A stretch of DNA of 64,000 nucleotides from Dictyostelium discoideum (taxonomy: Eukaryota). The stretch covers positions 2,848,001 to 2,912,000 of the forward strand of contig CM000154.2 in NCBI GenBank assembly GCA_000004695.1. The letters run 5' to 3'. The notes below the pieces were generated by a model. That model was given only the letters and a program-made list of their open reading frames with translations. It did no database searches and was not told where the DNA came from. Positions 32,348 to 36,142 of this stretch are shown piece by piece; position 1 is the first letter of the stretch, and each line of letters opens with the position of its first letter. The position numbers and the translations under genes were made by a program.

Positions 32348-33466
32348 ATGGAAATTAATGTTCAAGCTATAGTTATTGATAATGGTTCTGATACGTGTAA
32401 AGCTGGTTTTGTTGGTGAAGAAGCTCCACATTCAGAGTTCCCATCGATTGTTGGTATTGATCAAAATGATTCATATGTTGGTAATGAAGCTCAATCAAAA
32501 AGAGGTATTCTAACTCTTAAATATCCAATTGAACGTGGTATTATTACCAATTGGGATGATATGGAAAAAATCTGGCATCATGCTTTTTATAATGAACTTG
32601 GTGTTGCTCCAGAGGAAAATATAGTAGTTTTATCTGAATCACCATTAAATCCAGAAGAAAATAGAGAGAAAATGGCTCAAATCATGTTTGAAACTTTCAA
32701 AACTCCTGCAATATATGTTGAAAACCAAGCTGTATTTTCGATTTATAATTCTGGTCGTATGACTGGTATCGTTCTGGATTCAGGTGATAGTGCTTCTCAT
32801 GTTGTACCAGTTTATGAAGGTCTTGCATTGCCACATGCGACTTCAAGTTTAGGTTTTGCTGGTTGTGATCTTACTGATCAAATGAGTTTATTATTAAATG
32901 ATCTTGGTTACAACCTTGAAAGAGAAATAGTTAGAGATATTAAAGAGAAACTATCATATGTTTCATCAGATTTTTCATGGGAAATTAACGATCCATCAAC
33001 ATTAGGGAAATCATATGAACTACCAGACGGTCAAGTTATTACAATTGATAAAGAACTTTTTGCTTGCCCAGAGGTACTTTTCCTCCCATATGCATTTTTT
33101 GGTACGAACCTTGATGGTATTGACAAAGCAATCTATAATTCAATCATGAAGTGTAATGATGATATTCATAATGATTTATATGGTAATGTTGTATTATCAG
33201 GTGGTTCAACTATGTTCCCAGGTATTGAATATCGTATGTATAAAGGATTAACACAACTTGCACCATCAACAACGGAAATTGTAATTAATGCAGAACCAGA
33301 TCGTAAGAACTCTGTATGGATTGGTGGTTCAATTTTAGGCTTAGTTCCAAATTTCCAAGAATTGTGTATTGACAAAGAAGATTATGATGAATATGGTCCA
33401 TCGTTTGTGAACTTAGTAAAAAGTTTTAGAGAACAAAATCACCAAAATTATTATGGTGAAAATTAA
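32348..33466 (+). CDS. Highly divergent actin-like protein, copy 4 (372 aa; [21 protein letters not shown]...; lacks about 12 aa of the DNase-I-binding loop; extended C-terminus)
   Basis: Actin fold is recognisable throughout. The segment [14 protein letters not shown] is missing. Confidence 0.75.
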
Positions 33467-33467
33467 C

Positions 33468-33509
<42 letters not shown>

Positions 33510-33628
33510 CAATTCCAGTTTTCTTCAAATTTTATTCTTAAAAATTATTTTTAAAATTATATTATTAATAAAAATGTTATAAATTTATGGGAAAATATTA
33601 TATTAATTTTTTTTGTTTTGGTAATAAT

Positions 33629-33680
<52 letters not shown>

Positions 33681-33810
33681 TTTTTTTTTTTTTTTTTTTT
33701 TTTTGTATAAATAATTATTTTTTAAATGAAAAAAAAAAATAAAAAAACTTTAAAAAATAAACAATAATTTATATATTCAAATAATAATCAAAATAATAAA
33801 AAAAAAAAAA

Positions 33811-34459
33811 ATGGAAAGTGAAGATGTTCAAGCTTTATTTTTTTTTTTTTTTCTTAGTTTATCAATTATCTACTATTTTTAAATATATAAACTGAGATGT
33901 ATATTAATAAAATAATTTATTTTGCCAGAATGTAATAATTATATCTCACTAATAAAAATATCCATATAAGGAGAATGTAATTATATAAAATTTTGTTTTT
34001 AAGTTTTTTTTTTTTTTTAAGCAAAATATTAATTTTTCAAATTACAACATTATGACAACCAAAAGTGATTTCTATGGGGCTGACCCCTTAGATTTTTCAA
34101 ATCTAGAAGCACTTTTCCGACCATCATTATTGGCTATGGGCTGTGGTGGTATTCATGAAACAATCTATAATTCAATCATGAAATGTGATTATGATATTCG
34201 TAAATATTTATTTGGTAGTGTGGTATTATCAGGTGGTTCAACTATGTTTCCAGGTATTGCAGATCGTATGAATAAAGAATTAACTGCACTTGCACCATCA
34301 ACAATGAAAATTAAAATTATTGCACCACCAGAACGTAAATACTCTGTATGGATTGGTGGTTCAATTTTAGCCTCACTTTCAAATTGTCAAGAAATGTGGA
34401 TTTCAAAAGAAGAATATGACGAATCTGGTCCATCAATTATTCACAGAAAATGTTTCTAA
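33811..34459 (+). pseudogene. Rearranged/chimeric actin pseudogene: 9 codons of an actin start (MESEDVQAL), then flank-derived DNA, then the C-terminal 130 aa of actin
   Basis: 33811..33837 matches the 5' end of the copy at 36652. 33860..33975 matches the 3' flank of copy 2 (29925..30058). 34052..34100 matches the upstream element of copy 3. ORF 34052..34459 fuses that element in-frame to the actin 3' third. Confidence 0.7.
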
Positions 34460-35052
34460 AAAAAATAGTTAAATTAATATAATAAAATAAAAATTATAAA
34501 AACAAAAAAAAAAAAACAAAAAAAAAAATTAAAAAAAAAAAAAAAATCATTTTTGAAACAAAAAATAGAATTAGTTTCTTGTCGATAAAAGAAATAACCA
34601 CTCATATAAATTTTTTTCACCAATGACATAATTTTGGCTCTATTTACGTAATATACCATTAAAGCATTCGCTGAAAAAAAAAAAGGTTAAAAAATAAAAC
34701 AAAAAAAAAAAAAAAAACAAAAAAACTAAAAGTCTAAAAGTATGGTTGGTTGAAAAAAAAAAATTTTGAGCAGATGATCATGATCTTTTTTTTTTGGTGG
34801 TCATTTTTTAAAAATAAATAAAAAAAAAAAATAGAGAAAAAAAGTATGGTTTTTATTTAATCACATAAATAGTTGTTGCATCATTGTTTTTTGTTTTTCT
34901 ATTTTTATTTTTATATTTTTTTTTTTTTTTTATTCCCACACAGAATAACGTCTATTCGTGTTTTTCTATTTCTATTTTTATTTTTTTTAAAATCAAAATT
35001 AAAATTATTTTTAAATCAATTTTAATTCGTAATTTCAAGATATAAGGAATAT

Positions 35053-35062
35053 CCATATAAGG
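35053..35062 (+). promoter_or_regulatory. CArG box (CCATATAAGG) upstream of actin-like copy 6
   Basis: Same element as at 32320, in the duplicated flank. Confidence 0.5.
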
Positions 35063-35080
35063 AAATATTGTAAAAATAAA

Positions 35081-36142
35081 ATGGAAATTAATGTTCAAGC
35101 TATAGTTATTGATAATGGTTCTGATACGTGTAAAGCTGGTTTTGTTGGTGAAGAAGCTCCACGTTCAGAGTTCCCATCGATTGTTGGTATTGATCAAAAT
35201 GATAAAGATTCATATGTTGGTAATGAAGCTCAATCAAAAAGAGGTATTCTAACTCTTAAATATCCAATTGAACGTGGTATTATTACCAATTGGGATGATA
35301 TGGAAAAAATCTGGCATCATGCTTTTTATAATGAACTTGGTGTTGCTCCAGAGGAAAATATAGTAGTTTTATCTGAATCACCATTAAATCCAGAAGAAAA
35401 TAGAGAGAAAATGGCTCAAATCATGTTTGAAACTTTCAAAACTCCTGCAATATATGTTGAAAACCAAGCTGTATTTTCGATTTATAATTCTGGTCGTATG
35501 ACTGGTATCGTTCTGGATTCAGGTGATAGTGCTTCTCATGTTGTACCAGTTTATGAAGGTCTTGCATTGCCACTTGCGACTTCAAGTTTAGGTTTTGCTG
35601 GTTGTGATCTTACTGATCAAATGAGTTTATTATTAAATGATCTTGGTTACAACCTTGAAAGAGAAATAGTTAGAGATATTAAAGAGAAACTATCATATGT
35701 TTCATCAGATTTTTTATGGGAAATTGACGATCCATCATTAGAGAAATCATATGAACTACCAGACGGTCAAGTTATTACAATTGGTAAAGAACTTTTAGCT
35801 TGCTCAGAGGGACTTTTCCTCCCATATGTATTTTTTGGTACGAACCTTGATGGTATTGACAAAGCAATCTATAATTCAATCATGAAATGTGATGTTGATA
35901 TTCATAATGATTTATATGGTAATGTTGTATTATCAGGTGGTTCAACTATGTTCCCAGGTATTGAATATCGTATGTATAAAGAATTAACACAACTTGCACC
36001 ATCAACAACGGAAATTGTAATTAATGCACCACCAGAACGTAAGAACTCTGTATGGATTGGTGGTTCAATTTTAGGCTTAGTTCCAAATTTCCCAGAATTG
36101 TGTTTTGACAAAGAAGATTATGATGAATATGGTCGGTTGTGA
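35081..36142 (+). CDS. Highly divergent actin-like protein, copy 6 (353 aa; paralog of copy 4; small deletion gives an earlier stop ...DYDEYGRL*)
   Basis: About 93% identical to copy 4 at the protein level, with the same D-loop deletion. Confidence 0.75.

Follow-up and report, generated by a model that had tools for sequence, protein, structure and literature searches.

The stretch analysed here (64,000 nucleotides (nt), hereafter the window) covers positions 2,848,001 to 2,912,000 of contig CM000154.2 in the Dictyostelium discoideum assembly GCA_000004695.1. It is AT-rich (GC ~25%) and carries, between 26.6 and 40 kb, eight actin sequences arranged head-to-tail on the + strand, the intact copies of which are D. 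discoideum AX4 genes according to exact-sequence look-up. Two of them, act27 and act28, encode actins from which part of the loop that binds DNase I (D-loop) has been removed, and are the subject of the present analysis. The original prediction had placed two open reading frames (ORFs) at exactly these positions:

32348..33466, + strand: act27 coding sequence (CDS), 372 amino acids; DDB_G0289533, UniProt Q54HE9 ‘Putative actin-27’; ORF, exact look-up and Pfam Actin match of 371 bits.
35081..36142, + strand: act28 CDS, 353 amino acids; DDB_G0289511, UniProt Q54HE7 ‘Putative actin-28’; ORF, exact look-up and Pfam Actin match of 370 bits.

Both proteins belong to Pfam family PF00022 (371 and 370 bits for a cut-off of 27), the match being split in two by deletions, and share 64–68% amino-acid identity with conventional D. 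discoideum actin (Act8 group; actin-3). The top matches of the family in the PDB are Dictyostelium actin structures (E = 1e-147). The best of them, chain A of 1c0f, was deposited with 368 residues and reads …GRPRHTGKDSYVG…, with the VMVGMGQ segment absent; it outranks full-length actins only because a shorter gap is needed. Act27 and Act28 are already catalogued, uncharacterised genes: in the 2008 ‘actinome’ paper they appear as non-conventional actins, classed as actins and not as actin-related proteins (Arps), the motif positions of both ORFs agree with its Act27 and Act28 rows, and the D-loop is not mentioned in its searched text (PMC2441452).

The changes that set the two genes apart are described below in alpha-actin numbering, the D-loop deletion having been read from an alignment with the six intact cluster actins. 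Those with a defined position in the window are the following:

32453..32467, + strand: D-loop deletion site of act27, G36 followed by I-D-Q-N (alignments).
35186..35206, + strand: D-loop deletion site of act28, G36 followed by I-D-Q-N-D-K; a 6-nt insertion, not seen in act27 or either ortholog, is derived here.
32912..32917, + strand: first 4-residue subdomain-4 deletion (F200/T201–A204; GYN-LERE), shared by act27, act28 and the ortholog at sister locus L001 and not found in that at sister locus L002.
32987..32992, + strand: second 4-residue subdomain-4 deletion (residues ~229–234; WEIN-DPS) (alignments).
36123..36142, + strand: C-terminal frameshift of act28, a 4-nt deletion between 36132 and 36133 with a new TGA at 36140–36142 (alignment of the duplicated units).

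Residues R37–G46 (10 residues) are gone from both act27 and act28 through a clean in-frame loss of 30 nt. The last four D-loop residues, M47-G48-Q49-K50, are retained but read I-D-Q-N (M47I, G48D, K50N), so that the act27 junction reads FPSIVG-IDQN-DSYVGNEAQ and that of act28 IDQNDK-DSY. A loss of residues ~37–50 had been proposed; the deletion is real, but it extends over R37–G46 only. A loop that is present and merely displaced was checked for by alignment, and the 30 nt for R37–G46 are absent. Among 155 actins retrieved, the segment from PSIVG to DSY has 14 residues in 135, and only the four family members (act27, act28 and the two orthologs described below) have 4 or 6.

Beyond the loop, the proposed divergence of many surface residues is borne out by the alignments: to the subdomain-4 deletions are added a one-residue insertion and E270N in the hydrophobic plug of act27 and act28, and the substitutions H73R, K113E, Y169L, R177S, D179G and W356C. 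The C-termini are altered in both copies, as had been noticed, and in different ways. The terminal KCF is gone. In act27 the canonical stop is lost and read-through produces a 12-residue extension; in act28 the frameshift leads to an end in …YGRL*, so that ~10 residues at the end of the canonical actin frame are lost. This 4-nt deletion is the one such lesion of act28; act27 is free of premature stops and frameshifts, and the orthologs are intact. As for the nucleotide-binding motifs, said to be kept, they are indeed present in both AX4 copies, with the reservation that G15D, G158S and V159A occur in them. Most nucleotide-binding and catalytic residues are retained (S14, K18, Q137, D157, G301-G302 and K336), and the orthologs vary in the pocket as well (D154E at L001, H161Y at L002).

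The age of the deletion is given by comparison with sister genomes. In a search of 5.8 billion proteins, only Act28/Act27 and two further proteins score above the conventional-actin baseline, namely P0040 (363 amino acids, GCA_054859385.1) and P0069 (371 amino acids, GCA_054859205.1, ‘D. cf. discoideum’), both of which read FPSIVGIDQ[NK]DSY. A search for distant orthologs with a profile of the four sequences returned nothing above that baseline. Both sister loci are syntenic with the window (a helicase-like gene, the actin cluster, then a Band_7 gene), and each has a single D-loop-less gene between act25-like and act3-like copies. Since the same deletion occurs in syntenic single-copy orthologs, it predates the split of the three lineages, which are separated by a synonymous divergence (dS) of 0.10–0.18, and act27 and act28 were duplicated in the AX4 lineage alone. 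Both subdomain-4 segments are retained in the L002 ortholog, indicating that the loss in the D-loop came first.

The consequences for polymerisation were read against the contact list of the Chou & Pollard cryo-electron microscopy preprint (10.1101/309534), in which R39, V43, M44 and V45, all among the missing residues, make the main long-pitch contact. The deletion takes away R39, partner of D286 and E270, P38, which contacts Y169, V43, which fits the F375 pocket, and M44, whose pocket is made of L142, Y143, T148 and I165. The receiving side is altered too, by L142I, T148M, I165V and Y169L and by the disappearance of F375; of these changes, Y169L, T148M and L142I affect the M44 pocket and the W-loop. 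In the lateral K113-E195 pair the residues are now E and D, the charge being reversed by K113E and E195D completing the change. The E270-R39 and E270-T203 contacts are removed by E270N together with the loss of T203, the polymerisation-cation site T202/E205 is lost with the deletion of T202/T203 in AX4 and L001, and R290H affects the D244-R290 pair; K61, R62, I64, E167 and D244 are retained. What characterises a conventional filament-forming actin, a full D-loop (residues 40–50) with V43, M44 and M47 after R37-P38-R39, together with K113-E195, E270, T202/T203/E205, R290, Y169 and F375, is not found here. Overall, ~50% of filament-contact residues (a set compiled from general F-actin knowledge) differ from act3, versus 33% of the remaining residues. 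With long-pitch residues missing and both partner and lateral contacts changed, normal homo- or co-polymerisation of Act27 and Act28 appears unlikely. The structural half of the earlier suggestion that these proteins do not copolymerise normally thus holds on the sequence, through the lost D-loop contacts, T201-A204 and F375 and through K113E, Y169L, T148M, R290H and E270N.

Roles as filament caps, sequestering partners or ARP-like proteins had also been suggested; all three are speculative. Subunits add to the barbed end through their own pointed face (10.1101/309534), and a barbed-end cap is mechanically unlikely because this joining face is the eroded one. By the same geometry of barbed-end addition (10.1101/309534), capping would have to take place at the pointed end, where Act27 and Act28 would act as terminators or poisons that sit on the filament, accept the terminal D-loop and block growth. 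The pointed face is the most heavily trimmed (D-loop and subdomain-4 loop 200–204), the barbed face is partly kept, and K61, R62, I64, E167 and D244 are retained, which speaks for such a terminator; but the cleft on the barbed face is changed too (A144N, T148M, Y169L, L349V, T351N, M355L, W356C and the C-terminal extension or truncation) and the lateral contact K113 is charge-reversed. The orthologs, moreover, vary at surface residues (L, H or F in place of Y169; M or V in place of T148), contrary to what one would expect if an interface for actin binding were being maintained, and expression appears minimal. Pointed-end termination is accordingly regarded as highly improbable. Structure prediction is uninformative here: AlphaFold2 run on Act27 from a 58-sequence alignment gave a mean predicted local distance difference test score of 43 and a predicted template modelling score of 0.35, and the actin-3 control, with the same alignment, was equally poor (47.8 and 0.40). 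The low score therefore reflects a shallow alignment of low diversity and not the protein, and says nothing for or against the Act27 fold.

Whether such a protein has been maintained can be judged from codon evolution, for which an own maximum-likelihood implementation of GY94 + F3x4, corrected for the extreme base composition, was used. Pairwise Nei–Gojobori (NG86) estimates of omega, the ratio of nonsynonymous to synonymous rates, are 1.1–1.3 within the family versus 0.23–0.31 for act18 orthologs at the same dS, and under the one-ratio model M0 omega is 0.63 for the family versus 0.14 for equally diverged act18 orthologs; the strong purifying selection typical of conventional actin is thus absent at 0.63. 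With omega fixed at 1, the log-likelihood (lnL) reaches -2410.87; it is -2407.9 with one class and -2388.50 under M1a, which assigns 47% of codons to omega 0.04 and 53% to omega 1. The comparison of omega = 1 with M1a gives 2*deltalnL = 44.7, and M1a remains better than M0 without gap-adjacent columns (likelihood-ratio test (LRT) 17.6). Strict neutrality, in the sense of omega = 1 everywhere, is therefore rejected for the family as a whole. Positive selection was considered and set aside: the M2a versus M1a LRT is significant on all columns (19.6), but most candidate sites abut indels, and p = 0.087 after trimming.

Further indications come from the reading frames. Under neutral simulation, a 345-codon ORF stays open in all three lineages with a probability of 2e-4 if the mutation spectrum is uniform and of ~2e-6 if it is AT-biased. 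The alignment contains ~10 in-frame indel events in the family versus one frameshift, at the very end of act28, and the D-loop deletion and ~200 codons are conserved across species, with synonymous changes present in those codons. As ORFs outlast the neutral expectation, indels are in frame and a constrained class of codons exists, the ancestral gene was kept as a coding gene, its core constrained and its surfaces free. That the ORFs are open because functional paralogs repaired a pseudogene by gene conversion was considered and rejected, given that family-specific residues and the deletion persist across species. Act24-like genes show omega values of 0.8–0.97 with full-length ORFs (28728–29861 in the window, 8126–9259 at L001, 4336–5469 and 6264–7397 at L002), indicating that relaxed or mosaic constraint is common to most of the cluster and is not a property of act27/act28 alone.

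The history of the AX4 pair after this ancestral phase can be followed in the duplicated units and in the genes that surround them:

29958..33837, + strand: source unit of 3.9 kb, with the act25 upstream region, act25, act27 and the first 27 nt of act3 (blastn and MAFFT alignment of the two units).
33871..36678, + strand: copy unit, with a remnant of the act25 upstream region, act36_ps, act28 and the start of intact act3 (blastn and MAFFT).
32348..32980, + strand, versus 35081–35719: 5′ CDS tract of 633 nt in act27 and act28, with 3 differing positions (0.5%; Fisher p = 7e-6).
26594–27725, + strand: act30_ps, a frameshifted copy that fits Table 1 of PMC2441452.
28728–29861, + strand: act24 (exact-sequence look-up).
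30511–31668, + strand: act25 (exact-sequence look-up).
34052–34459, + strand: act36_ps, a partial actin of 135 amino acids, likewise fitting that table (PMC2441452).
36652–37782, + strand: act3 (exact-sequence look-up).
38806–39948, + strand: act18 (exact-sequence look-up).

The first 27 nt of the act3 CDS (ATGGAAAGTGAAGATGTTCAAGCTTTA) are stranded downstream of act27 at 33811–33837, so the breakpoint of the duplication lay inside act3. The copy unit later lost ~1.05 kb (of act25) plus 0.12 kb, leaving act36_ps. A recent duplication of 2.8 kb had been proposed; the start-to-start spacing of the two genes is indeed ~2.74 kb, but the duplicated unit measures 3.9 kb and comprises act25 as well as act27. 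Divergence between act27 and act28 is 0.5% over codons 1–211 and 3.9% over codons 212–350, with 3.8% upstream and 3.5% between act25 and act36_ps. Because the 5′ CDS stands at 0.5% against 3.5–3.9% elsewhere in the unit, a recent gene-conversion tract probably covers the 5′ part of the two CDSs.

The differences between the two copies are mostly nonsynonymous, with NG86 counts of Nd = 20 and Sd = 2. Of 22 tabulated nucleotide differences, 21 fall in codons with differing amino acids, 3 of them from the frameshifted end of act28. With the orthologs used for polarisation, nine changes can be placed in act27, among them E237G, G251D, E316G, P332E and E334D, five positions at which both orthologs and the other cluster actins agree against act27; act28 has four real derived changes plus the frameshift. 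On the two tip branches that follow the duplication, omega is 1.46, not different from 1. The AX4 pair is thus without detectable constraint since the duplication, a situation compatible with redundancy or with early decay.

These observations lend themselves to another explanation, in which the two AX4 genes are duplicates without function or in the course of dying (nascent unprocessed pseudogenes), in a cluster where actin copies are continually gained and lost, and the D-loop deletion is one lesion among many. Decay is at work nearby, the cluster also holding act30_ps (a frameshift) and act36_ps (a fragment), and the act3 counterpart and several other copies being truncated or frameshifted in the sister genomes. 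Within the pair, the excess of Nd (20) over Sd (2), a 3′ CDS diverged at the non-coding rate, the C-terminal frameshift of act28 and radical act27 changes at positions fixed in orthologs and other cluster actins all point the same way, as do a pairwise NG86 omega of 1.1–1.3, values of 0.66–0.97 for the neighbours act24 and act25, and the lack of reported expressed sequence tags (ESTs) for act27 in the actinome paper (PMC2441452). What speaks against death as the whole story is the family as such: neutrality is rejected for it (2*deltalnL = 44.7), its ORFs are intact in three lineages where the neutral expectation is 2e-4 to 2e-6, nearly all of its indels are in frame, and the deletion and ~200 codons are conserved across species amid synonymous changes. 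That both AX4 genes are dead or dying is considered possible, though rather unlikely; the AX4 copies can be dying today even if the ancestral gene was functional.

On balance, we slightly favour a reading in which act27 and act28 arose by recent tandem duplication from a young actin paralog, found only in the D. discoideum complex, that retained the fold of actin and the greater part of its nucleotide pocket, and whose surfaces for joining filaments appear to have been lost. The ancestral protein would be a non-polymerising actin-fold protein, acting as a monomer or as a subunit of some complex; it could donate neither a D-loop nor a subdomain-4 contact to a neighbour, and its barbed-face cleft would be altered. 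Expression would be low or condition-specific, and the AX4 copies would be redundant and drifting, one or both perhaps becoming pseudogenes. With respect to what was catalogued, the new elements are the conservation of the deletion in sister species, the mosaic selection and the drift of the AX4 pair since a two-gene duplication of 3.9 kb.

Several points weigh against this preferred reading. The family was detected in no more than three closely related genomes; it is young, and other dictyostelids can do without it. Its omega of 0.63 is high, and every family lineage gathers changes at columns that are invariant in the 13 other actins compared. The class of constrained sites could partly correspond to regional rate variation or gene conversion instead of protein-level selection. 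ATP handling may be impaired, as G15, G158, D154 and H161 vary within the family. Finally, Act27 and Act28 are predicted proteins, whose production and folding are presumed.

Data on expression are sparse. In the actinome paper, act27 is reported without ESTs and act28 is not among the genes listed as EST-less (PMC2441452). Of the condition set to refute the earlier proposal, namely that neither gene has transcripts, this answers only half. A search of the available papers by gene identifier (DDB_G0289533, DDB_G0289511) returned no mention. The exact Act27 and Act28 proteins occur only in genome-derived sources and not in Logan assemblies; as the expressed actin-3 is absent likewise, this absence is uninformative. 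A conserved upstream element is present:

32320..32329, + strand: CC(A/T)6GG (CArG-like) box CCATATAAGG, which precedes the act27 ATG by 28 nt.

This box, CCATATAAGG, a perfect match to the serum response factor (SRF)/MADS-type consensus, recurs at 35053–35062 (act28), 9973–9982 (L001) and 9976–9985 (L002). It precedes every D-loop-less gene in all three genomes, 25–28 nt upstream of each ATG and within a conserved block of ~70 nt. Over the window, CC(A/T)6GG occurs 9 times versus 5.6 expected, which is not above chance, so only the conserved position deserves attention. An unlikely possibility is that the young D-loop-less actin, kept under mosaic selection, is an expressed protein with a non-filament job, either as a conditional subunit or decoy, possibly MADS/SRF-controlled through this box, or as the real ‘Arpx’ of DdPPK2 preparations; as a natural non-polymerisable actin of minimal divergence, it would then represent an early step from actin to Arp.

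The name Arpx refers to DdPPK2, a complex of Arp1, Arp2 and Arpx reported to form an actin-like filament while making polyphosphate. Two in-silico, secondary papers link it to the present genes: Q54HE9 (Act27) is given as the third subunit of ‘PPK3’ in one (PMC4400040, Table 1) and Q54HE7 (Act28) as arpX of DdPPK2 in the other (PMC13318637, Appendix). According to reviews, a single 43-kDa band contained Arp1, Arp2 and an unreported Arpx, a size to be compared with the 41.5 kDa predicted for Act27. An identification based on peptides would be specific, given that Act27 and conventional actin have a single tryptic peptide of at least 6 residues (GILTLK) in common. The mapping to Act27/Act28 is nonetheless second-hand. 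The primary DdPPK2 paper is that of Gomez-Garcia & Kornberg (2004). The DdPPK2 activity is itself disputed, as no genetic data back it and ppk1-null cells are without detectable polyphosphate (PMC7054745). DNase I and phalloidin are also said to inhibit DdPPK2; for either effect, a protein devoid of the DNase-I-binding loop and with altered filament contacts would be a poor candidate. Nor does the family occur beyond three closely related genomes. The identity of Act27/Act28 with Arpx is an unverified lead and very doubtful; were it correct, a subunit without this loop would fit poorly with the reported inhibition by DNase I.

The position of the family among actins can be specified by comparison with three better-known groups. 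With conventional actins (Act8 group; actin-3), act27 and act28 share the Pfam family, an intronless gene and the same tandem cluster. They differ in lacking the KCF terminus, the full D-loop and both subdomain-4 segments, in an omega of 0.63 for the family versus 0.14 for the conserved neighbour act18, and in little or no EST support. With Arps they share the altered hot spots (D-loop, plug and subdomain 4), Arp4 being an actin fold rendered non-polymerising through changes in loops at filament contacts (PMC3510490). They are, however, not orthologs of the conserved Arp1–Arp11, which are under far stronger selection, and form a young offshoot of conventional actin (~65% identity). Membership of an Arp class does not apply, given that the nearest relatives are conventional actins (63–66% identity). 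Act25, lastly, belongs to the same cluster and duplicated unit, has a modified D-loop and plug and a relaxed omega (0.66), and differs in that 15 residues are inserted in its D-loop, 7 are deleted from its plug and the canonical C-terminus is kept. Part of the KDSY segment seems to be repeated internally in the act25 insertion, and the act25 ortholog at L002 (8051–9217) also has a D-loop insertion, of 12 residues.

Shortening of the loop is recurrent among divergent actin-like proteins. With a family profile run on a library of 1.84 billion proteins, the segment from PSIVG to DSY was found to be shortened by 3–10 residues in at least 8 of the best 150 representatives, with cases in Tritrichomonas musculus (KAK8843771.1, which reads NGIDPQTNDVY), Gymnodinium smaydae and Mesostigma viride. 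With an identity to the family of only 42%, the Tritrichomonas protein points to independent events in unrelated lineages and not to relatives of act27/act28. If the protein is made, act27/act28 would offer a natural experiment in the transition from actin to Arp, caught at ~65% identity, when the D-loop, a portion of subdomain 4, the geometry of the plug and the C-terminus had already been lost, and could serve as an actin that by nature does not polymerise. Should the genes simply be in decay, they would illustrate ordinary birth and death in a tandem gene family.

Some minor observations concern the surroundings of the two genes. A scan of the window for bacterial promoters and terminators gave 39 hits versus 38.8 expected, a chance level and not relevant to a eukaryote. 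Additional CC(A/T)6GG boxes lie at 30049 and 33962 in the window and at 7584 at L002. Both sister genomes carry a damaged gene at the place of act3 (L001 11389–12922; L002 11644–12755), act3 being intact in AX4: at L001 the normal start is missing and the D-loop region is shortened (GVMDQKDSY), and at L002 frameshifts split the gene into three ORFs. Several additional partial actin copies flank both sister clusters.

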